Positions 1,307 to 29,453 of a stretch of 64,000 bases of DNA are shown piece after piece. The first letter of the stretch is position 1. The number at the start of each line of letters is the position of its first letter. A program made the translations under genes and the position numbers. This DNA is from Ferruginibacter sp. (GTDB taxonomy: Bacteria; Bacteroidota; Bacteroidia; Chitinophagales; Chitinophagaceae): NCBI GenBank assembly GCA_040002495.1, contig JBDUEK010000004.1, positions 29,342 through 93,341 on the forward strand, written 5' to 3'. The notes under the pieces were generated by a model. It ran no database searches. It had not been told where the DNA came from and saw only the letters and a list, made by a program, of their open reading frames with translations.

Positions 1307-3454
1307 TTAATTTTTTACAGTGTCTTTTACTTCGGCCTGTTTTCTTTCATTGGGAATGATTGCTTCAATTTTATTTTTTGCAGGAATTTCACTGCTGTCT
1401 TTTTTGGGCATTTCATTTTTTACCGAATCCTTTCTTAACTTATCGAGCTTTATTTTATCCAATGCCTCTGCCTCATCTTCTTCATCAAGTCCCATAGTAT
1501 CTTTTATAGCTTTTAAATAACCTTTGGCCACAAGGTATGCAGAGTCCCTGATGTGACGCATAGAATCCTGCTTGCGGATTTCTGCATAAATTCTTGGAGG
1601 AATCAGGTTAAGATTCGAAAGTTGTTCTACTCTTGCCAAACGGGCTTTGTCTGTTATAGAATCTTTTAGATATTTTTCAATTAATAAACCACATATTGGT
1701 GCTGCGTAAGTACCACCAAAACGACCACTGTTTTCAACTACGCACATGATCGCAATTTTTGGATTATCACGGGGAGCAAATCCACAAAAGAAAGCATGGT
1801 TAGGTTGCTTTACCGATCCGATGTAGTTTTCCACGGTGCCGGTTTTTCCACAAATGTCGATACCATCTACTTTTGCGCCCATGCCGGTTCCTCTTTCAAC
1901 CACACCCTGCATACCATCATGTACTGCTTCAAAAACACTATCAGGTATATCTGTTGTATTGTGTCGTTCCTTAAATTTATTTAATAACTCAAACCGGTCA
2001 CCGCCTTCAATAGAATCAACCAGGTGGGGGATTTTATACCAGCCCTTATTAGCAATAAAAGCCATTTCATTAGCTACTTGTATGGGTGTAACATTCACCT
2101 CACCCTGTCCAATACTTACCGAACGAAAGGTGCAATAATTCCAATGACCTTTGCCATAAATTTTATCGAAATGAGCAGGAGTAGGAATGTTACCACTCTT
2201 TTCATACGGCACATCAACGCCTAATTTGTGGCCCAACCCAAATGCATACATGTAATTATCCCAAACTTTTAAACTGCTGTCTACATTAGGATATTTAGGA
2301 TTGTCTATTACCCGTTGCATTACGTTGGCAAAGTAAGTGTTATCAGAAACAGTAATAGCACTACGCAAATCAAAAGTTCCAAAATCGAGGCACCTCATTG
2401 GATGGGAACTTCCACAACCATAAAATGCACCAGAGCAGGAAAACCTGGTACTGGTTTGAATGACACCTTCATGCAATCCAATTAACGCCTGTAGCGTTTT
2501 AAATGTAGATCCGGGAGAATAAATACCACTTACAGTTCGATTGTATAATGGAAGCGCAGGGTCCAATAGTAACTCTCCAATATGTTTACGCCTTGTAGCT
2601 CCCGTTAATAATTTTGGTTTGAAAGTGGGGCTACTCACCATCGCTAAAATTCCCCCGGTTTGGGGATCTACCGCAACAATAGCACCCAGTTTGTTCTCCA
2701 TTAATTTCTCGCCCAATGCCTGTAATTCGATATCCAGCGCCAGGTGCATATTATCTCCGGCAATTGCTGCAGTATCAAACTTTCCTTGTTCAAGTCGTTC
2801 GGTTAACCGGTTTTTGTTATCCCGTTTCCAATACTGAATACCTCGTTGCCCCATTAAGGCTCTTTCGTAAGTTCTTTCGAGGCCGGTCTTTCCTGCATAG
2901 TCACCAATTTGGTAACCTTCATCCAAATGCCGTTTTAAAAAACTGCTATCAACTTCCGATAAATAACCTAGTATATTACCCGCTGCATCTACGGGATAAC
3001 TTCTTACAGGTCGTTCTTGTAAATAAAACCCCGGGGCAAATTTATACATGGCCTCATTTAGCATGGCCATTTTTTCATCCGATAACAAGGCATCAAAAGT
3101 AGATGGCCTTGCCCGGCCATTTCTAATCCTTACTTCCAACAATTTCTTTTCAAAAGTTGCAGTATCAATCTGCAATATGCGGCACAATGCCGCAGTATCA
3201 ATTCCTTTAATTTTATTAGGAATAACCATCAAATCGTAAATGGTCATATTTTGAAGAATCGGGCGGCTTTTACGATCATACACAATACCACGATCAGGAT
3301 AAATTACTTTTCTAAATTTCCCCTGATCATCGGCCATGATTGCATACTTGGAGGAAAACAATTGCAGGTTAGCCAACTGCAGAATGATAACCAGAAAGAT
3401 GCCGACAAAAACAAGCCGGACTACATTTTTTCGTGATTGATTGAAGACAGACAA
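1307..3454 (-). CDS. mrdA: Penicillin-binding protein 2 (class B transpeptidase)
   Basis: N-terminal TM anchor, RG-I-YDR motif, SxxK (PGSTFK), SxN (SDN), KTGT; mre operon context; TTG start. Confidence 0.95.
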   Translation of the reverse strand: MSVFNQSRKNVVRLVFVGIFLVIILQLANLQLFSSKYAIMADDQGKFRKVIYPDRGIVYDRKSRPILQNMTIYDLMVIPNKIKGIDTAALCRILQIDTATFEKKLLEVRIRNGRARPSTFDALLSDEKMAMLNEAMYKFAPGFYLQERPVRSYPVDAAGNILGYLSEVDSSFLKRHLDEGYQIGDYAGKTGLERTYERALMGQRGIQYWKRDNKNRLTERLEQGKFDTAAIAGDNMHLALDIELQALGEKLMENKLGAIVAVDPQTGGILAMVSSPTFKPKLLTGATRRKHIGELLLDPALPLYNRTVSGIYSPGSTFKTLQALIGLHEGVIQTSTRFSCSGAFYGCGSSHPMRCLDFGTFDLRSAITVSDNTYFANVMQRVIDNPKYPNVDSSLKVWDNYMYAFGLGHKLGVDVPYEKSGNIPTPAHFDKIYGKGHWNYCTFRSVSIGQGEVNVTPIQVANEMAFIANKGWYKIPHLVDSIEGGDRFELLNKFKERHNTTDIPDSVFEAVHDGMQGVVERGTGMGAKVDGIDICGKTGTVENYIGSVKQPNHAFFCGFAPRDNPKIAIMCVVENSGRFGGTYAAPICGLLIEKYLKDSITDKARLARVEQLSNLNLIPPRIYAEIRKQDSMRHIRDSAYLVAKGYLKAIKDTMGLDEEDEAEALDKIKLDKLRKDSVKNEMPKKDSSEIPAKNKIEAIIPNERKQAEVKDTVKN

Positions 3455-3595
3455 GGTGCTTTTAATTTATTTGTTTACTGGTTATAGAGCTTTCCTATTT
3501 ATTAAAAATGAAAATAAAATCAGTTCTAAACCAACTGTCTATTTTAATGTTTTTGCATTTATAATTAACCCGCGAAGGTCATAATTATTTTGAAC

Positions 3596-3710
3596 GGGTG
3601 CATTTCAAATTGTCGCTTTACTTGTAACACTGTGGGCGGTGAGGACACCGCCCACGGCTGACTGCCCTGGCTGGTGTCTCCACCAGCCAGCGACAATTTG
3701 AAATGCACCC
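3596..3710. mobile_element. MITE-like non-autonomous element (22-bp TIRs, 8-bp TSD)
   Basis: GGGTGCATTTCAAATTGTCGCT (3596-3617) is the exact reverse complement of 3689-3710; TTTTGAAC directly abuts both ends (3588-3595, 3711-3718). Confidence 0.85.
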
Positions 3711-3818
3711 TTTTGAACGCCATTCCCTTAAATTTATTGAATTTTGTGTACAATTATATAACCTATTAACTTCTACCAATTACAAATACATATTACAGAT
3801 TGTATTTTAACAATACTA

Positions 3819-4352
3819 TTAAACAGTATTTGTTCTGAATTGCTGTTTTCGGGAAAACAATAACTCTGCAATGATAATGAGTAATAAGCTTACAGCAGTT
3901 GACAACAATGTTTTGACAAGAAAATACCAGAAGTTTCCAAATTGCCAGGCTTCTAAAAAGAATAGCCAACCATGATGGATAAAAGTAAGTACCCCGGCGT
4001 AAACCATGTACGGTAGAAACCCGCCCATACTTTTGGCGGAGGGTTCGTCATAATTACTATCAGCACCTTCCTGGGGTATCATTATATTAATAAGAAAAGG
4101 ACGGAAATAGGCAATCAATACACAGGCCGCGGCATGAAATCCGGGATTGTGCCTGAAACTATCGAGTGTAAACCCAAGTGCAAATGCAATCAGCATTTGA
4201 GCGCTGCGGCTGAGTTTAAAGGGCATCCATAAAATGAACAGAAAATAAATATAGGGCGTAACCATATAGTTAACATGGATCCTGTCAAGTATAAATACCT
4301 GAACCAGTATCAATATAGCAAAACGGACAATATTTTTAATTAAGGTGTTCAT
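3819..4352 (-). CDS. mreD: Rod shape-determining protein MreD
   Basis: 177-aa hydrophobic multi-TM protein directly downstream of mreC. Confidence 0.9.
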   Translation of the reverse strand: MNTLIKNIVRFAILILVQVFILDRIHVNYMVTPYIYFLFILWMPFKLSRSAQMLIAFALGFTLDSFRHNPGFHAAACVLIAYFRPFLINIMIPQEGADSNYDEPSAKSMGGFLPYMVYAGVLTFIHHGWLFFLEAWQFGNFWYFLVKTLLSTAVSLLLIIIAELLFSRKQQFRTNTV

Positions 4353-4369: not shown

Positions 4370-5230
4370 TTAATTATTGATTTTATTATTTGCATTCTTC
4401 AACAACGTGTTTATTTCATCCTTCTGATAATTTTCGATGGCGTAAACATATTGCAGGTTATTAAAACTGGCGCTGGTTTTTATACGAATGATAAAGTTAT
4501 TGGTTCCCTTGTCCGGCACTACACTATCGATTGTTCCAAGAAAAAGGCCATAGGGAAAAGTTGCCGTGAAACCGCTTGTTAAAACCGTATCACCTTTTAT
4601 AAGTTTTACACTTTTCCTGATATCGGTCAACGATAAAAAATGCGGATCTTTTCCATCCCAGACTACCTGGCCGGCTTCGCCACTCTTTTTTAGTTTGGCA
4701 CTTATTTTACTGTCTTTGTGCAAAAGGCTCATCACTACTGCGTAATTGCTACTTACATCTGTAATAATGCCCACCACTGCATTATTTGGATCAACCACTC
4801 CCATATCTTTTCTTAAATGTTGATCAGCACCTCTGCCCAAAACAATAAAATTATTCTGAGCTGATATTGAGTTGGAAACAACTTTGGCTGCACTGTACTG
4901 CCACTTACGAATATGCCCTAAAGTATCGTATGGAATTGAATCGGTAATTACTTTGGCGGTGGTGTCCGGAGTTTCAAAATTTTCTTTGAGCAGGTTTCGT
5001 AACCGTTCGTTATCTTTTGCCAGTTGCTCGTTGGTTTTTTTGAGCTGAAGATAATAGTCGATTTTATTGTATTGGGTATTTACCTTGCCGGTTATTTCAT
5101 TCATAACGCCGGAAGCAACCGCATTGTGATAGGTATTATAATGCACAATCAGGTATATGCAAAATATCTGTAGTAACAGTAAAAAAATAAAATTGAAATA
5201 CCTGCGGACGAATAAAAAAATATTATGCAT
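4370..5230 (-). CDS. mreC: Rod shape-determining protein MreC
   Basis: N-terminal TM, coiled coil (LKKTNEQLAKDNERLR), beta-domain motifs (GDTVLTSG, FPYG); follows mreB. Confidence 0.95.
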   Translation of the reverse strand: MHNIFLFVRRYFNFIFLLLLQIFCIYLIVHYNTYHNAVASGVMNEITGKVNTQYNKIDYYLQLKKTNEQLAKDNERLRNLLKENFETPDTTAKVITDSIPYDTLGHIRKWQYSAAKVVSNSISAQNNFIVLGRGADQHLRKDMGVVDPNNAVVGIITDVSSNYAVVMSLLHKDSKISAKLKKSGEAGQVVWDGKDPHFLSLTDIRKSVKLIKGDTVLTSGFTATFPYGLFLGTIDSVVPDKGTNNFIIRIKTSASFNNLQYVYAIENYQKDEINTLLKNANNKINN

Positions 5231-5350: not shown

Positions 5351-6376
5351 TTAACGCATTACAAAAGGATACTTATCATAATTTTTCAATGCGATACCTG
5401 TTCCTCTCACCACGCTTTTCAGTGGATCATCGGCAACATGTACAGGTAATTTAATTTTAGCTGCTATTCTTTTATCCAGTCCTCTTAACAGTGATCCGCC
5501 ACCAGTAAGATATAAACCTCTGCGGTAAATATCACCTGCCAGTTCAGGCGGAGTAGTTTCCAATGCTTTTAAAATAGCTTCCTCAATTTTGAAAATACTC
5601 TTGTCCAACGCTTCTGCAACTTCCTGGTAACTAACAAAAACCTGTTTTGGGATACCTGTTACAAGGTCACGTCCGTTTACAGGAATATCATCCGGTGGAT
5701 TTTCAAGATCTTTCATTGCAGATCCAACCTGAATTTTTATTTGTTCAGCAGTACGTTCACCTATTAGTAAGCTATGATAACGGCGAAGTGCCTCCATAAT
5801 ATCTGCAGTAAATTCATCACCCGCAATACGAATACTTTGATCACACACAATACCTGCCAATGCTATCACGGTAATACCCGTAGTACCACCACCAATATCA
5901 ATGATCATATTTCCAACTGGTTCCTCCACATCAATACCAATACCCAACGCTGCAGCCATGGGCTCATGAATCAGGTAAACTTCTTTAGCGCCGGCTTGTT
6001 CGGCACTATCTCTAACCGCACGTTTTTCAACCTCAGTAATGCTGCTTGGAATACAAATCATCATTCTCCAGCTTGGAGCAAACAATGGCTTTTTAGGATA
6101 GATCATTTTGATCATTTCCCTTATCATTAATTCAGCGGCGTTAAAATCTGCTATTACGCCATCTTTCAGGGGACGAACGGTACGGATGCTTTCATGCGTT
6201 TTTTCATGCATCATCAAAGCTTTCTTTCCAACGGCTAAAATATTTTTGGGATTATTTCTGTCTAAGGCAACAATAGAAGGCTCGTTCACTACTACTTCAT
6301 CGTTAAATATTATCAGGGTGTTTGCGGTACCCAAATCCATCGCAATTTCCTGTGTGAAAAAATTAAAAAGACCCAT
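5351..6376 (-). CDS. mreB: Actin-like ATPase MreB
   Basis: DLGTANT, RPLKDGVIADF, EPMAAALG, DIGGGTT and LTGGGSLL motifs. Confidence 0.98.
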   Translation of the reverse strand: MGLFNFFTQEIAMDLGTANTLIIFNDEVVVNEPSIVALDRNNPKNILAVGKKALMMHEKTHESIRTVRPLKDGVIADFNAAELMIREMIKMIYPKKPLFAPSWRMMICIPSSITEVEKRAVRDSAEQAGAKEVYLIHEPMAAALGIGIDVEEPVGNMIIDIGGGTTGITVIALAGIVCDQSIRIAGDEFTADIMEALRRYHSLLIGERTAEQIKIQVGSAMKDLENPPDDIPVNGRDLVTGIPKQVFVSYQEVAEALDKSIFKIEEAILKALETTPPELAGDIYRRGLYLTGGGSLLRGLDKRIAAKIKLPVHVADDPLKSVVRGTGIALKNYDKYPFVMR

Positions 6377-12426: not shown

Positions 12427-12683
12427 TAGTTAAATTAAAATAGTTAACAGGTATAACAGTTCGTAAGACAAAACTTTTATGGATAGGTTTAAAGGTTCCC
12501 GTCTAAAGATTCAGTTTGAACAGTAAAATAAATCATTTAAGGAAATGAAAATATAAAAGGGTATGCTAAAGTTATATTACACACGAATTTAAAGTGACAA
12601 CAAATCTACCCGGGAATGTTGCCAATAGAATTACTAATAATGAAGTCAACAGTAAAAGGCAAATAGAAAAGGTCAAGTTCGAA

Positions 12684-13145
12684 TTACTTAACGAACAAAA
12701 AGATAGCAATAAACAAAATAATAAAAAGTAAGAGTATTCTCGTCCTACGTGTCCTAATTTGATAAGCTACAAAGAATGATAAAATTGCGCCAAAGAATGT
12801 TATACTGATTACTCCAGCGCCAGATTCAATAACCCGGTCCTTTAATGCGTCATAATTATTTGTCGCAAGTTTAATAAGCTGAAAAATAAATTCGGCAATT
12901 AAGCAAACAATACTCCCTAAAAGTGTCATTCGAAAAACTGATAAAGAACTATTTTGTCTATGCAATTTTTTAATGAAAATTATAAGAGTTGTCAACATTG
13001 ATATAAGAATCAAAAGCCCACCGATATTGATAGGTGTGTATGGAATATGTTCAGGAATAATAAGTCCAGAGAAATAAAGTAACCAATATTCAAATACAAA
13101 TCCAATTAATAGAATTCCGCTAAAAATTATTGTCAGTCTTTTCAA
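12684..13145 (-). CDS. Hypothetical multi-pass membrane protein
   Basis: 153-aa TTG-start ORF with about 4-5 hydrophobic segments; AT-rich; co-oriented just downstream of serS. Confidence 0.65.
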   Translation of the reverse strand: MKRLTIIFSGILLIGFVFEYWLLYFSGLIIPEHIPYTPINIGGLLILISMLTTLIIFIKKLHRQNSSLSVFRMTLLGSIVCLIAEFIFQLIKLATNNYDALKDRVIESGAGVISITFFGAILSFFVAYQIRTRRTRILLLFIILFIAIFLFVK

Positions 13146-13199
13146 AGTTGCTGGAAGTTTTTTCTAATAGTGCACAATATAACCGTAGAAGTATAATGA

Positions 13200-14468
13200 T
13201 TAAATAGATTCAGCTCCGAAAAAACTATGCAATACCTCCGGCAAATTGATGCCTTCCGCTGTTTGATTATTTTCCAGCAGTGAAGCCATAATTCTTGGTA
13301 AAGCCAATGATGAACCATTTAAAGAATGTAATAACTGGGTTTTGCCACCAGCATCTTTGTAGCGGATTTTCATGCGGTTGGTTTGAAAAGTTTCGAAGTT
13401 TGAAACTGAACTTACTTCCAGCCATTTTTCCTGTGCTGCACTATACACTTCAAAGTCGTAAGTGAGGGCGCTTGTAAAACCCATATCACCGCCACATAAG
13501 CGTAAGATACGGTAAGGCAGTTCGAGGGATTGCAATAATTTTTCAATATGTGCCACCATTTCTTCCAGCACTTCATAACTTTTTTCCGGATGCACCAATT
13601 GAATAATTTCTACCTTATCAAACTGGTGTACGCGGTTTAGGCCACGTACATCACTTCCAAAACTTCCCGCTTCTCTTCTGAAACAAGGTGTGTATGCAGT
13701 CATTTTTACAGGCAGTTCAGTATCCTTTACAATTTCATCCCTGTAAATATTTGTAACCGGCACTTCTGCAGTCGGTATCATATAAAATCCATCTTCTTTA
13801 ATATGATACATCTGGCCTTCTTTATCCGGCAACTGGCCGGTACCGCGAGCAGACTTTTCATTTACCATCAGGGGGGGCATATATTCCGTGTAACCTGCAG
13901 CAATATTATATTCCAAAAAATATTGAACCAATGCCCTTTGTAATTTGGCACCTTTACCTTTAAATAGGGGAAAACCACTTCCGGTTATTTTAGCCCCTGT
14001 TTCAAAGTTAATCAGGTCATATTTTTTTATAAGATCCCAATGAGGAACCGCACCAACATACAATGTCGGCTTTACCCCAACTTCCTTTATGTTCAAATTT
14101 TCTTCGGGTGTGTTGCCTGGCGGTACGGAACTATGAGGAAGGTTTGGCAACTGAATCAATTCGTTTTGCAATGTATTTTCTAAAGTAGCCAATTGCTTTT
14201 TCAACTGTTCAATTCCCACTTTACCCTGGGATACTTCATACCGTTTTTGCTCCGCCAATTCCTTTTCGCCTTTGCCCACGAGCATACCAATTTCGTTACT
14301 GGTTGCATTCAATTTTGCCCGCAAAGTTTCTGATTCAACTTTTAATTTACGCACCTGGTCATCTAAGTCCACAATTGTATCTACCAACGAAATATTAGCA
14401 AAATGCCTGTGGGCCAATCTTTCTTTTACTAAATCAATGTGCTGGCGGATATAATTTATCTGTAACAT
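13200..14468 (-). CDS. serS: Serine--tRNA ligase
   Basis: N-terminal coiled-coil arm, PTAEVP, FRREAGS, RVHQFDKVE, EVSSVSN, LNGSSLALPR. Confidence 0.98.
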   Translation of the reverse strand: MLQINYIRQHIDLVKERLAHRHFANISLVDTIVDLDDQVRKLKVESETLRAKLNATSNEIGMLVGKGEKELAEQKRYEVSQGKVGIEQLKKQLATLENTLQNELIQLPNLPHSSVPPGNTPEENLNIKEVGVKPTLYVGAVPHWDLIKKYDLINFETGAKITGSGFPLFKGKGAKLQRALVQYFLEYNIAAGYTEYMPPLMVNEKSARGTGQLPDKEGQMYHIKEDGFYMIPTAEVPVTNIYRDEIVKDTELPVKMTAYTPCFRREAGSFGSDVRGLNRVHQFDKVEIIQLVHPEKSYEVLEEMVAHIEKLLQSLELPYRILRLCGGDMGFTSALTYDFEVYSAAQEKWLEVSSVSNFETFQTNRMKIRYKDAGGKTQLLHSLNGSSLALPRIMASLLENNQTAEGINLPEVLHSFFGAESI

Positions 14469-14488
14469 TTGTGTTTATAAAATTTTTG

Positions 14489-14496
14489 CAAAGGTA
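14489..14496 (-). promoter_or_regulatory. Bacteroidota sigma-A -7 element (TACCTTTG) for serS
   Basis: Exact TAnnTTTG match 20 nt upstream of the serS start. Confidence 0.7.
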
Positions 14497-14592: not shown

Positions 14593-14891
14593 AATATTCA
14601 TACCACATTTTGATACAGCGGGAAATATAATATATCTGCCCATTAGTTTTGAAGAACTCTTAATTGCATTGCCCTTTGAATTGCACTGCCCTTCAGGGCG
14701 GTGATCAATGAAACCATCCTTCATGGCTTTAGCCAAAGTAGATTTGGCTAAAGCCATAAATAAAATTAGAATTTACCCCCCGACCTAAAGGACGGGGCAA
14801 TGCAAAAAGATGAACCATTAGATTGAATGCTGCATTAATCAACAATATTCATAACACATTTTGATACAACGGAGAGTATAACGTGCCCATT
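14593..14891. repeat. Degenerate ~50-bp direct repeat pair (14593-14644 and 14844-14891)
   Basis: AATATTCATA[C/A]CACATTTTGATACA[G/A]CGG...TATAA...TGCCCATT occurs twice, 251 bp apart. Confidence 0.8.
14664..14805. repeat. REP-doublet (REPIN/BIME-like) cassette
   Basis: Inverted pair of TTG + 9-bp-stem hairpins (14681-14703 and 14778-14800), a central perfect 15-bp-stem hairpin (14723-14757) and an outer 11-bp inverted repeat (14664-14674 / 14795-14805). Confidence 0.75.
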
Positions 14892-26009: not shown

Positions 26010-27479
26010 GTGAAGGAAAGCGTATTAATGAGCATTTTTAAAAAGATATATTCAGTAGTCATTTATTTATTACTCACAATAAATGCAACAGCCCAACATG
26101 TTGAACAACCGGTTCAAAACAGGGATACTTTTCAAATAGCTGTAAGAGATTCTACCACAAAACTAGTCATTCGCAAAATAAATGTAACAGGCAACCGGCA
26201 TACCAAAACATATATGATACTTCGGGAAATTCAATTTGGTCCCGGAGATTCCATTAGCATTCCCTCCATCACAAAAGCGTTTGAACTTGCCCGTCAACAA
26301 ATTTACAATACCAGTTTATTCAATGAAATTAAGCTGGAACTGGTAATGCTATCTGCATATGAAATTGATGTGAATGTAACCGTGCAAGAACGCTGGTATC
26401 TTTATCCTGCACCACAATTTCAATTGGTTGACCGCAATTTTAATGAATGGTGGGTGCGGTTTCATCGTAACCTTAACCGGGTAAACTACGGCGTAAAGTT
26501 TGTGCATTATAATTTTAGTGGCCGACGTGACCCTTTGCGTATTTACCTGATAAATGGCTATACCCGTAACATTTCATTTTCGTATTCGCAACCATATAGT
26601 AACCCTGGTTTAACAAAAGGATTTGGTATTGGCGGTGGACTATCTCAAAACCGGGAAATGAATTTTAAAACATCTTACAACAATCAAACATTATTTTTTA
26701 AACAAAATGATTTTGTAAAGAAGAACTGGTATTTCAATTTAAGCCTGCGTTTACAAAAAGGATATTTGTCAAGGCATACGGTTACATTTAATTATTCTTT
26801 CTTACAAGTGAATGATTCCATTATTACAACTAAATACAACCCCTCTTATTTCAATTTAAATACTACATCAAAAAATATTTTTGATCTTAGTTACAATTGG
26901 CGATATACCAATGTAAACAATATAGCCTATCCATTAAAAGGAACTACTGCTTATGCAACGCTTACAAAACGAGGCCTTGCACTTACCGGTGGCATTAACC
27001 TGTTGAATACCGAATTTGGATACAACAGGTATTGGACCCATAAAAAAAATTGGTACACAAGCCTGCAGTTTTCAGGAAATGTAAAACTACCTTTTGATCA
27101 ACCATATATTAATCAACGAGCACTTGGTTATAGTGAAACTAACCTTCGGGGCCTGGAATATTATGTGGTGGATGGCGTAGCTTTTGGACTATTAAAATCT
27201 ACTTTAAAAAAGAAATTATTTTCCTTTTCCATACCTTTTCCATTTAAATCAAAAACATTTACAGCTATTCCTTTTTCATTTTATGCCAAAACCTATGCAG
27301 ATGCAGGATTTGTATACAATAAAAGGAAGTATCTTACAAATCTTAATAACAGGTTTTTGTACTCCGGGGGATTTGGAATAGATGTGCTCACCCTTTACGA
27401 TGTTAGTATCCGGTTTGAATACAGTTTTAACCAACTTGGTGAAAACGGGTTATTTTTGAGAAGCATCGGTGGATTATAA
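26010..27479 (+). CDS. Omp85 (BamA/TamA-like) outer-membrane protein with about one POTRA
   Basis: POTRA signature (I.VTGNRHTK.YMILRE), LRGLEYYVVDG, terminal beta-strands. Confidence 0.8.
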   Translation: MKESVLMSIFKKIYSVVIYLLLTINATAQHVEQPVQNRDTFQIAVRDSTTKLVIRKINVTGNRHTKTYMILREIQFGPGDSISIPSITKAFELARQQIYNTSLFNEIKLELVMLSAYEIDVNVTVQERWYLYPAPQFQLVDRNFNEWWVRFHRNLNRVNYGVKFVHYNFSGRRDPLRIYLINGYTRNISFSYSQPYSNPGLTKGFGIGGGLSQNREMNFKTSYNNQTLFFKQNDFVKKNWYFNLSLRLQKGYLSRHTVTFNYSFLQVNDSIITTKYNPSYFNLNTTSKNIFDLSYNWRYTNVNNIAYPLKGTTAYATLTKRGLALTGGINLLNTEFGYNRYWTHKKNWYTSLQFSGNVKLPFDQPYINQRALGYSETNLRGLEYYVVDGVAFGLLKSTLKKKLFSFSIPFPFKSKTFTAIPFSFYAKTYADAGFVYNKRKYLTNLNNRFLYSGGFGIDVLTLYDVSIRFEYSFNQLGENGLFLRSIGGL

Positions 27480-27611
27480 TACCTTCAATAAAAGTAACCG
27501 GCAATTTGATTGATATTAAAATTTCATCTTCAACCTTGTTACCGTGGGCCTTGTAACAAAACAACAATGGCAGCGTTCTTACAATTGCACTAATAAATAA
27601 TAAACCAACTA

Positions 27612-28493
27612 ATGAAAATAGCTATTTATAGCAGGGGCATTGAAAATGATCAACATAAGGACATGGAGTCACTTTTGGAAGAATTAAATCTTTATAAAGT
27701 GGAGCCAGTTTTTTACCAGGATTTTTTCAACAAGTTTTATTCTTCTGTAACTATGAATGGTAAGTATTCCACTTTTAATTCGGCAGATGACCTCGATGAT
27801 ACCATCGATTGTATGATAAGCCTGGGTGGTGATGGCACTTTGCTTGATACGGTTACTTTGGTACAGGATAAAGGCATTCCGGTTTTGGGAATCAATTATG
27901 GCCGCTTAGGATTTTTAGCAACTATTGGTAAAGAAGATTTGCACTTTGCTATTAAAGCCCTTGCTCAAAGAACGTACGTTACAGATAATCGCACCTTAAT
28001 TCATCTTGACGCCAATATTCCGTTATTTAATAACACGCCTTATGGCCTAAATGAATTTACGCTCCAGAAAAAAGATTCGTCTTCCATGATAAAAATTCAT
28101 ACTTATTTAAATGGTGAATTTTTAAATACTTATTGGGCTGATGGATTAATTGTGGCCACACCCACAGGTTCTACCGGCTATTCATTAAGTTGTAATGGGC
28201 CAATTGTTTTTCCGGATAGCGGTAGTTTTGTAATAACACCGGTTGCTCCACACAATTTGAATATCCGCCCGATTGTAGTGCCGGATAATAATATTATTTC
28301 TTTTGAAGTTGAAGGAAGAACAGATTCTTTTATCTGCACATTAGACAGCAGGCGCATGGTAGTTCCTAAAGAAGCTCAACTTGCATTAAGAAAAGAAAAA
28401 TTTGGCCTTAATCTCATCCGTTTAAATGAAAGTAATTTTCTTCAAACACTTAGAAATAAACTTTCGTGGGGACTTGATAAACGTAATAATTAG
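27612..28493 (+). CDS. nadK: NAD kinase
   Basis: GGDGT, GINYGRLGFL, NE motif, DG..ATPTGSTGYSLS.NGP. Confidence 0.96.
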   Translation: MKIAIYSRGIENDQHKDMESLLEELNLYKVEPVFYQDFFNKFYSSVTMNGKYSTFNSADDLDDTIDCMISLGGDGTLLDTVTLVQDKGIPVLGINYGRLGFLATIGKEDLHFAIKALAQRTYVTDNRTLIHLDANIPLFNNTPYGLNEFTLQKKDSSSMIKIHTYLNGEFLNTYWADGLIVATPTGSTGYSLSCNGPIVFPDSGSFVITPVAPHNLNIRPIVVPDNNIISFEVEGRTDSFICTLDSRRMVVPKEAQLALRKEKFGLNLIRLNESNFLQTLRNKLSWGLDKRNN

Positions 28494-28592
28494 CTTTGAG
28501 TAAATTGTATAGTTTACAAGCGCTCATCACAATAAAAAATTAAGAAAACCGTACCACGCAAATATTTTAAAAACAATTCTTATTTTGCAGTT

Positions 28593-29453
28593 ATGAAAAA
28601 ATGCATCCTTACCGCTTTTGTTATATTTTCTCTGTTCACCTCTTCGGTTTTTGCACAAGATGTTTATGAACAACAAGGTGAATTTGGATTCACCGTTGGG
28701 GCCGCACACTATTTTGGCGACCTTAATACCAGGGCAGGTCTTAACCGTCCCAAACCCGCAGTGGGCATTTTTTATACAAAGCAGTTTAATAACTACCTAG
28801 GTGTACGCATAAGCGCTCATTTTGCCCAGTTAGGCTACAGTGATATTTACAGCAAAAACGCTTACCAAAAAAGCAGGAACCTAAGTTTCAATACAGATAT
28901 TTTTGAAGTAGCTGCACAAGGTGAATTTAACTTTTTTAAGTTTGTTGCAGGCGATCCTTATTACAATTTTACGCCATTTGTAACGCTGGGTGTTGGCTTG
29001 TTTAGTTTTAACCCATATGCTTATCTTAATAATAAAAAAGTTTACTTAAGGCCGCTTGGTACAGAGGGGCAAAACATACCATACAACGATCCGGCAACTG
29101 GTAAAACCCGCAAGCCTTATGGTAGCATGGCCGTTTGTTTTCCTATTGGAGCCGGTATTAAATACAATTTTTCAAATAATGTGAATCTTTCTTTTCAGAT
29201 TACACATCGCCTTACAATGACAGATTACCTGGATGATGTAAGTACTACCTATGTGGGAATTGGTAATTTTCCACCGTTGAATGGCCAGGCTTCTACTGCC
29301 GGCATATTACAGGATCGTAGTTTTGAATTGGGTACACCAATAGGTGTGGAAGGACGCCAACGTGGGTTTAGCAAACAGAAAGATCAATATATAATTGCGG
29401 AAGTTGGTATTTCATTCAGTATCAGCACTTACAAATGTCCATCAGCTAATTAA
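28593..29453 (+). CDS. porG: DUF6089 / PorG-like outer-membrane beta-barrel (T9SS-associated)
   Basis: Signal peptide, YFGDLN, RNLSF, TDYLDDVS motifs; position directly upstream of uppS-bamA-skp as in other Bacteroidota. Confidence 0.65.
   Translation: MKKCILTAFVIFSLFTSSVFAQDVYEQQGEFGFTVGAAHYFGDLNTRAGLNRPKPAVGIFYTKQFNNYLGVRISAHFAQLGYSDIYSKNAYQKSRNLSFNTDIFEVAAQGEFNFFKFVAGDPYYNFTPFVTLGVGLFSFNPYAYLNNKKVYLRPLGTEGQNIPYNDPATGKTRKPYGSMAVCFPIGAGIKYNFSNNVNLSFQITHRLTMTDYLDDVSTTYVGIGNFPPLNGQASTAGILQDRSFELGTPIGVEGRQRGFSKQKDQYIIAEVGISFSISTYKCPSAN

Follow-up and report, generated by a model that had tools for sequence, protein, structure and literature searches.

A non-coding element between mreD and mrdA of Ferruginibacter is very probably a MITE moved in trans by an ISKra4-type transposase

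Bacterial MITEs, among them the Correia (CREE) elements of Neisseria, MITEAba12 of Acinetobacter and the MITEs of Porphyromonas gingivalis, are short, non-coding elements whose terminal inverted repeats (TIRs) match those of an autonomous insertion sequence (IS). They make target-site duplications (TSDs) of fixed length, occur in many intergenic copies, have strongly folding interiors and are missing from the corresponding sites in related genomes. The element described here shares these features and is of this ordinary, well-documented kind. It differs from the described MITEs in that its partner belongs to the ISKra4 family, in that three families with unrelated interiors are built on one TIR, and in that its interior is not the deletion remnant of an IS. 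A search of the literature returned no report of an ISKra4-derived MITE.

ISfinder gives the ISMich2 group elements of 1250-1400 bp, 8-bp direct repeats and GGG ends. This group of the ISKra4 family, listed as p-MULT 4, consists of simple ISs in which the transposase is divided between two ORFs and restored by a -1 frameshift; ISKra4 and IS256 both belong to the Mutator superfamily, and the ISKra4 group proper has been described as targeting promoter-proximal sites (Guerillot et al. 2014, PMC3942029). Unlike the members of the ISMich2 group, the element in our DNA itself codes for nothing. Another class of small repeat with which it can be compared comprises the REP, BIME and REPIN sequences, which are likewise intergenic and contain GC-rich inverted hairpin doublets. 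The present element differs from these in having TIRs and 8-bp TSDs and in showing no association with RAYT genes.

The 64,000-nucleotide stretch of DNA that we analysed (the window) is part of contig C4 in a MAG of 6.23 Mb and 196 contigs, here G000, which its relatives place in Ferruginibacter (Chitinophagaceae). It carries, all on the minus strand, mreB (5351-6376), mreC (4370-5230), mreD (3819-4352; TIGR03426 at 37.9 bits, with a cut-off of 34.85), the PBP2 gene mrdA (1307-3454; PF00905 and PF03717) and rodA (1-1290). In the spacer between mreD, the transcriptionally upstream neighbour, and mrdA, the downstream one, a non-coding element of 115 bp spans positions 3596-3710, and the ORFs that overlap it are spurious frames of 53-62 codons only. 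It is bounded by perfect 22-bp TIRs, GGGTGCATTTCAAATTGTCGCT at 3596-3617 on the plus strand and its exact reverse complement at 3689-3710 on the minus strand, which represent the 'TTC' variant of a core GGGTGCAT-nnn-AAATTGTCGC. Both ends of the element are abutted by a copy of TTTTGAAC, the left TSD copy at 3588-3595 and the right one at 3711-3718; because the first base of the element is G, the flanking direct repeat formally counts 9 nt (TTTTGAACG). These repeats were obtained both by reading the sequence and with a repeat finder, and a search that tolerated as many as three mismatches located the 22-mer at only two places in the 64-kb window and at none in 100 shuffles. The spacer measures 364 bp with the element and 241 bp without it. 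Measured from the outer edge of the adjacent TSD copy, the mreD stop codon is 100 nt away (from 3718) and the annotated TTG start of mrdA 133 nt away (from 3588). The sequence-only reading had described just such an insertion between mreD and mrdA, with perfect 22-bp TIRs inside an 8-bp duplication, and these claims were borne out in full.

That reading had also suggested looking for the TIR elsewhere in the genome, where it proved to be abundant, with about 150 (148) matches. A genome search returned some 40 copies of the window element's own family, which we call family A, at 86-100% identity and in two subfamilies distinguished by 6 sequence positions. Searching for the TIR with mismatches brought out two more families of about 117 bp, namely family B, with about 31 complete copies and TTA as its variable triplet, and family C, with about 10 complete copies and CCC. 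All three end in the common GGGTGCAT-nnn-AAATTGTCGC, and their interiors are unrelated. Copies of each family bear individual 8-bp TSDs, which are perfect in 20 of the 28 complete copies of family A (24 with at most one mismatch), in 15 of 31 copies of family B (23) and in 4 of 10 copies of family C (5). For family A, duplications of 6, 7 or 9 bp gave no perfect case, those of 10 bp gave one, and a shifted control gave none. The TSDs are 70% A+T, compared with 62% for the genome, and all 70 complete copies of the three families are intergenic according to a crude gene model under which random placement would be 83% genic. Many contigs of the MAG terminate within elements of families A, B or C.

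We then compared the site with that of Ferruginibacter ant_bin.75 (L039), whose PBP2 is 95% identical and in which exactly the element is missing. In BLAST alignments the L039 flanks are 84-89% identical to those of the window, and the two flank alignments overlap by 9 bp. At base level, the arrangement GTTCAAAA-element-GTTCAAAA of the window corresponds to one GTTCAAAA in L039, and when the two flanks of the window allele are joined, the resulting sequence is colinear with L039 across the junction, through a single GTTCAAAA. The empty site with one copy of TTTTGAAC that the earlier reading had proposed to seek in related genomes is thus present, between colinear flanks. The element would have entered the mreD-mrdA spacer after the lineage had split from its closest sequenced relative. 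A single TSD copy would likewise be left behind if the element were ancestral at the site and L039 had lost it through precise excision, but we regard this as highly improbable. In the more distantly related L040-L044 the spacer is much shorter, and BLAST aligned the coding flanks alone and found no trace of the element. Furthermore, the window copy differs from its subfamily consensus by only one nucleotide, and DDE elements rarely excise so precisely that the target is restored.

The distance of one substitution from the subfamily consensus marks the window copy as young. However, chance has a part in the perfection of its TIRs: in the subfamily consensus the ends are TTTC/TTCC, and it is this one substitution that renders those of the window copy perfect. 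The statement that perfect repeats imply a recent event was therefore only roughly right. A recent insertion is supported by the closeness to the consensus and by the absence of the element from L039, whose flanks are 84-89% identical, but the perfection of the repeats itself goes back to the one substitution.

An autonomous partner was found outside the genome of the window. In a public scan, pairs of TIRs 1255-1276 bp apart enclosed a conserved ORF of 330-343 aa at three loci of different lineages (L184, L215 and L211), and a protein search with this ORF led to 64 loci and to 33 full-length IS copies that were scored. These are 1238-1391 bp long, most of them 1255-1276 bp, and carry the MITE TIR at both ends; a perfect 8-bp TSD flanks 14 of them, and 18 of the 33 have no clean TSD, perhaps as a result of recombination between copies. 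The two ends of any one copy agree in the variable triplet (TTA in 14, TTC in 8 and CCC in 2). Each triplet is characteristic of a single IS lineage and of one MITE family: TTA of family B, TTC of family A and CCC of family C. The window TIR is identical to the ends of TTC-type ISs of about 1.26 kb, for example L288, L299, L305 and L286. Thus the cognate autonomous IS that the sequence-only reading had suggested as a further check does exist, in other Bacteroidota, with identical TIRs and 8-bp TSDs.

The transposase of these ISs is encoded by orfA (about 80 aa) and orfB (about 340 aa), which overlap at an A-rich RRKKK tract. Two ORFs occur in all lineages, with orfB in the -1 frame in TTA-type copies (L265, L261 and L276), whereas TTC- and CCC-type copies have it in the +1 frame. 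On its own, orfB matches NCBIfam NF033572 (ISKra4 family transposase) with an E-value of 1e-57 and 196 bits over profile positions 79-422, and matches ISLre2 and Pfam UPF0236 more weakly. In L288 the two are fused into an open frame of 411 codons, and the 391-aa protein counted from its first Met reaches 215.2 bits, past the NF033572 cut-off of 205. L288 and L299 come from the same MAG (MFD05442.bin.2.243) and have identical terminal sequences; they measure 1259 and 1260 bp, with orfA and orfB fused in one and split in the other, a difference that may point to slippage in the A-run or to a fused form that occurs naturally. Among annotated homologues, those on cyanobacterial plasmids are named as ISKra4 family transposases at 26-27% identity, and the nearest ones in Bacteroidota, on Chondrinema plasmids at 35-38% identity, are labelled as two hypothetical proteins.

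Judged by these profile matches, the partner IS encodes a transposase of the ISKra4 family. Its placement in the ISMich2 group is provisional and is made by size, ORF layout and TSD length. Like the members of that group it is a simple IS of about 1.26 kb with a two-ORF transposase, it passes the NF033572 family cut-off, and its size, 8-bp repeats and GGG ends agree with the ISfinder values. It departs from them in the +1 frame of orfB in two of the three Bacteroidota IS lineages. This Bacteroidota clade of ISKra4-family, ISMich2-like ISs is apparently uncatalogued. One Chitinophagaceae MAG, RUP_SRG_29, holds at least 10 full-length TTA-type copies on long contigs (L265-L274), most of them with perfect 8-bp TSDs and with a protein 83% identical to the L184 transposase, and this looks like a currently active population.

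The sequence-only reading had offered ISL3, IS256 and IS1595 as families from which the mobiliser might come. All three have 8-bp TSDs and often GG-start ends. IS256, furthermore, shares the Mutator superfamily with ISKra4 (PMC3942029). Mobilisation by one of these DDE families is nevertheless very unlikely, as every transposase-bearing element that was found to have exactly these TIRs is of ISKra4 type. IS1595 and ISL3 were rejected as mobilisers: their signatures PF12762 and PF01610 have no match in the window's genome or in the MITE-rich genome G014, and the IS1595 and ISL3 copies of the congeners G079 and G142 have ends unrelated to the window TIR. None of the suggested families is thus a likely source, whereas the more general claim, that the site bears the footprint of a DDE-type insertion, is upheld by the individual 8-bp TSDs of the copies, the empty site in a relative and the cognate IS with identical TIRs.

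We conclude that window positions 3596-3710 are very probably a family A MITE moved in trans by the transposase of an ISKra4-type (ISMich2-like) IS. According to the mechanism that we propose, the DDE transposase of a Bacteroidota ISKra4-family IS of about 1.26 kb (Mutator superfamily, ISMich2-like) would act on family A in trans, recognising the 21-22-bp termini GGGTGCAT-nnn-AAATTGTCGC. Integration would take place through an 8-bp staggered cut in AT-rich intergenic DNA, giving rise to the TTTTGAAC duplication, and the interior would ride with the TIRs as a structured cargo of two hairpins that is not derived from the IS.

For this organism, we infer trans-mobilisation from other genomes, its own assembly containing no intact transposase. 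Searched by tblastn with the cognate transposase, the genome gave a match on contig C120 only, in agreement with the earlier claim that neither the element nor the window, which is on C4, encodes one. This sole trace (C120:12003-12566) corresponds at 43% identity to residues 137-330 of the protein encoded by L184, contains 7 in-frame stops and abuts a solo TIR, GGGTGCATTTCAAATTGTAGA, at 12575-12595. Because the assembled genome retains just this stop-riddled relic, the window copy is probably immobile now. No long element bounded by TIRs was found in the genome, where TIR pairs 300-5500 bp apart are neighbouring MITEs around ordinary genes. Solo TIRs on C8, C11, C116 and C30 lead to ordinary genes or to another small repeat, C120 alone holding the relic, and those on large contigs of eight congeners all belong to short elements. 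The partner IS is not among the large repeats of the genome, which are NRPS, glycosidase, RAYT-like genes and similar; an NRPS-like gene on C22 contains a 1.9-kb internal duplication (12584-14494 and 26955-28865) of 99.8% identity. The assembly has no contigs shorter than about 2.5 kb, and a collapsed multi-copy IS of 1.26 kb could have dropped out of it; the TIRs found at contig ends all continue into an interior of MITE type, none into one of IS type.

Across the genus, 48 of the 151 Ferruginibacter genomes that were sampled contain the TIR pattern with at most one mismatch, with between 1 and about 250 matches in each, and a reversed-pattern control gave 0. The transposase has a match in 7 of the 151, and the two go together, six of these seven genomes being TIR-positive compared with 42 of the other 144 (Fisher p = 0.004). 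Since transposase matches are confined to just 7 genomes, most MITE-bearing Ferruginibacter MAGs look orphaned of the transposase, as assembled. Beyond the genus, a scan of one genome per species returned the exact TIR in Chitinophagales, Cytophagales (Runella, Spirosoma and Cyclobacteriaceae), Sphingobacteriales and Lewinellaceae, and also in Bacteroidales (Prevotellaceae and Tannerella). The IS or its TIR was further seen on short contigs of MAGs from outside the Bacteroidota, namely L279 (Anaerovoracaceae), L285 (Patescibacteria) and L185 (Deltaproteobacteria), for which mis-binning is a likelier explanation than real transfer.

Other small repeats are also common in the window's genome. 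An unrelated repeat of about 170 bp at window positions 14662-14830 has 11-bp TIRs (TTGCATTGCCC) and a perfect central hairpin, with 87 BLAST matches genome-wide that, among the matches listed, are mostly at 70-90% identity. A third abundant repeat, at C8:17791-17950 and about 100-160 nt long, has more than 100 BLAST matches elsewhere; two of its copies, on C8 and C11, start with the TIR-like GGGTTCATTTGAAATTGTTGC, and it may be a distant relative within the same TIR superfamily.

We now turn to the interior of the window element. The left TIR is followed by a variable AT-rich spacer (3618-3631), which differs in length and sequence among related elements, and then by hairpin 1, GTGGGCGGTG-AGGA-CACCGCCCAC, with a 10-bp stem and a 4-nt loop (3632-3655). 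An 11-nt linker, GGCTGACTGCC (3656-3666), recognised by folding and alignment, separates this from hairpin 2, CTGGCTGGTG-TCTC-CACCAGCCAG (3667-3690), the final 2 nt of which are shared with the right TIR; both hairpins were given by the repeat finder and by pair counts. Beyond the TIR of about 21 bp the MITE and the IS have no sequence in common, and the MITE is therefore not a simple deletion derivative of the IS. Folded as the operon strand, the whole element forms a 22-bp outer stem that bears both hairpins, with a folding energy of -81.3 kcal/mol (z = -12.3), and the two-hairpin architecture recurs in 14 elements of other genomes, on all three TIR variants. In a gapless alignment of 15 sequences, 97.7% of cells are paired, against 35-62% when the partners are slid, although sequence relatedness inflates such counts. 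Hairpin 2 in this alignment has three pairs changed on both sides, in 15 cells, and hairpin 1 is almost invariant between genomes. These compensatory changes are suggestive of conservation of the hairpins.

An interior consisting of an inverted pair of GC-rich 10-bp hairpins, in a genome that encodes several RAYT/IS200-like proteins, might bring to mind a REP/REPIN-like hairpin pair moved by an HUH tyrosine transposase (RAYT), to which the outer repeat would be incidental. Such an origin is extremely improbable, and we rejected it. The copies have individual 8-bp TSDs, which HUH transposition does not make, and they end in the same termini as a DDE-type IS. Around the seven RAYT-like loci of the genome, no family A hairpin was found up to a distance of 1.5 kb. 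Moreover, stem-loops with a GGTGnnnnCACC apex are almost exclusively found within family A copies in this genome, and hairpin counts follow the copy number of family A (34 in G000 and 31 in G014). Hairpin 1 occurs in 11 of the 151 Ferruginibacter genomes, of which 10 are TIR-positive by the strict pattern (Fisher p = 4e-5) and the eleventh, G023, has degenerate family A copies, so that hairpins apart from the TIRs were not seen. The hairpins travel with the TIRs, and a link to REP/RAYT systems is therefore unsupported.

The genome does contain paralogous ORFs of about 170-220 aa in segments that are repeated two to three times, at C101:4882-5854, C124:9115-9885, C62:28906-29706, C6:1809-2879, C179:491-1364, C10:96155-97036 and C173:3312-3992. 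The three that were inspected (C101, C6 and C10) have the HUH-type motifs NHLHLV, NHVHAT and DHLHFF, as in RAYT/IS200-like transposases.

Another way to view the hairpins of the MITE is as a functional module kept by selection and not as filler. The compensatory substitutions, the occurrence on all three TIR variants and the lack of kinship with the IS are the grounds for considering this, and we put it forward tentatively, as a possibility against which we would still lean. Such a module might boost transposition, for example as a cruciform that brings the ends together, or it might serve the host at the level of RNA or DNA, in transcript processing or insulation.

A related question is whether the insertion is neutral for the genes around it. 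Without detracting from a MITE origin, a structure of 115 nt in the mre-mrd transcript might act on the expression of mrdA and rodA; it could do so as a processing or stability site, as a partial block to transcription or through an outward-reading promoter. The strong fold on the operon strand and the compensatory changes that keep the hairpins across genomes are consistent with such an effect. The Bacteroidota -7 motif is TAnnTTTG, and each TIR, when read, contains an outward-facing ACAATTTG that weakly resembles it. However, a scan of positions 3588-3718 for an intrinsic terminator (a hairpin with a U-tract) found none, the element having no U-tract, and the orientation of family A copies is not biased with respect to co-directional neighbours (11 versus 5). 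Sigma-70-like promoter matches number 2, compared with a shuffle mean of 2.3, under a model unsuited to Bacteroidota. No promoter motif stands at a constant distance from the insertion sites, around which the TTTG/CAAA motif has no positional peak. Finally, because the spacer is already 241 bp long without the element, mrdA may have a promoter of its own downstream of the insertion. An effect on mrdA-rodA expression is thus unlikely, and our default expectation is that the mre-mrd insertion is tolerated and near-neutral.

The distribution of insertions also bears on targeting. Divergent spacers hold 34% of them, against 23% under the null, and convergent spacers 9% against 15% (p about 0.08 by a hand chi-square). 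With this weak shift towards divergent spacers and no TTTG/CAAA peak, promoter-targeted insertion, as in TnGBS and the ISKra4 group proper, is unsupported; in contrast to that group, these MITEs show no sign of promoter-proximal targeting.

These results add nothing to the general understanding of how MITEs work. What is new is the clade of probable ISKra4-type mobilisers, the three MITE families on one TIR, their phylum-wide spread, the transposase relic and the hairpin cargo. The MITE superfamily and its ISKra4-type partner are widespread in Bacteroidota and apparently uncatalogued, with homologues annotated as hypothetical proteins, and repeats of this kind are responsible for many contig breaks, both in this MAG and in related ones. 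A closely related pair of genomes with and without a folding insert of 115 nt could reveal how mreBCD and mrdA-rodA are transcribed in Bacteroidota. If the hairpin module were functional, the families would be structured-cargo MITEs of an uncatalogued ISKra4 clade, and the copy between the mre and mrd genes would provide a natural test case.
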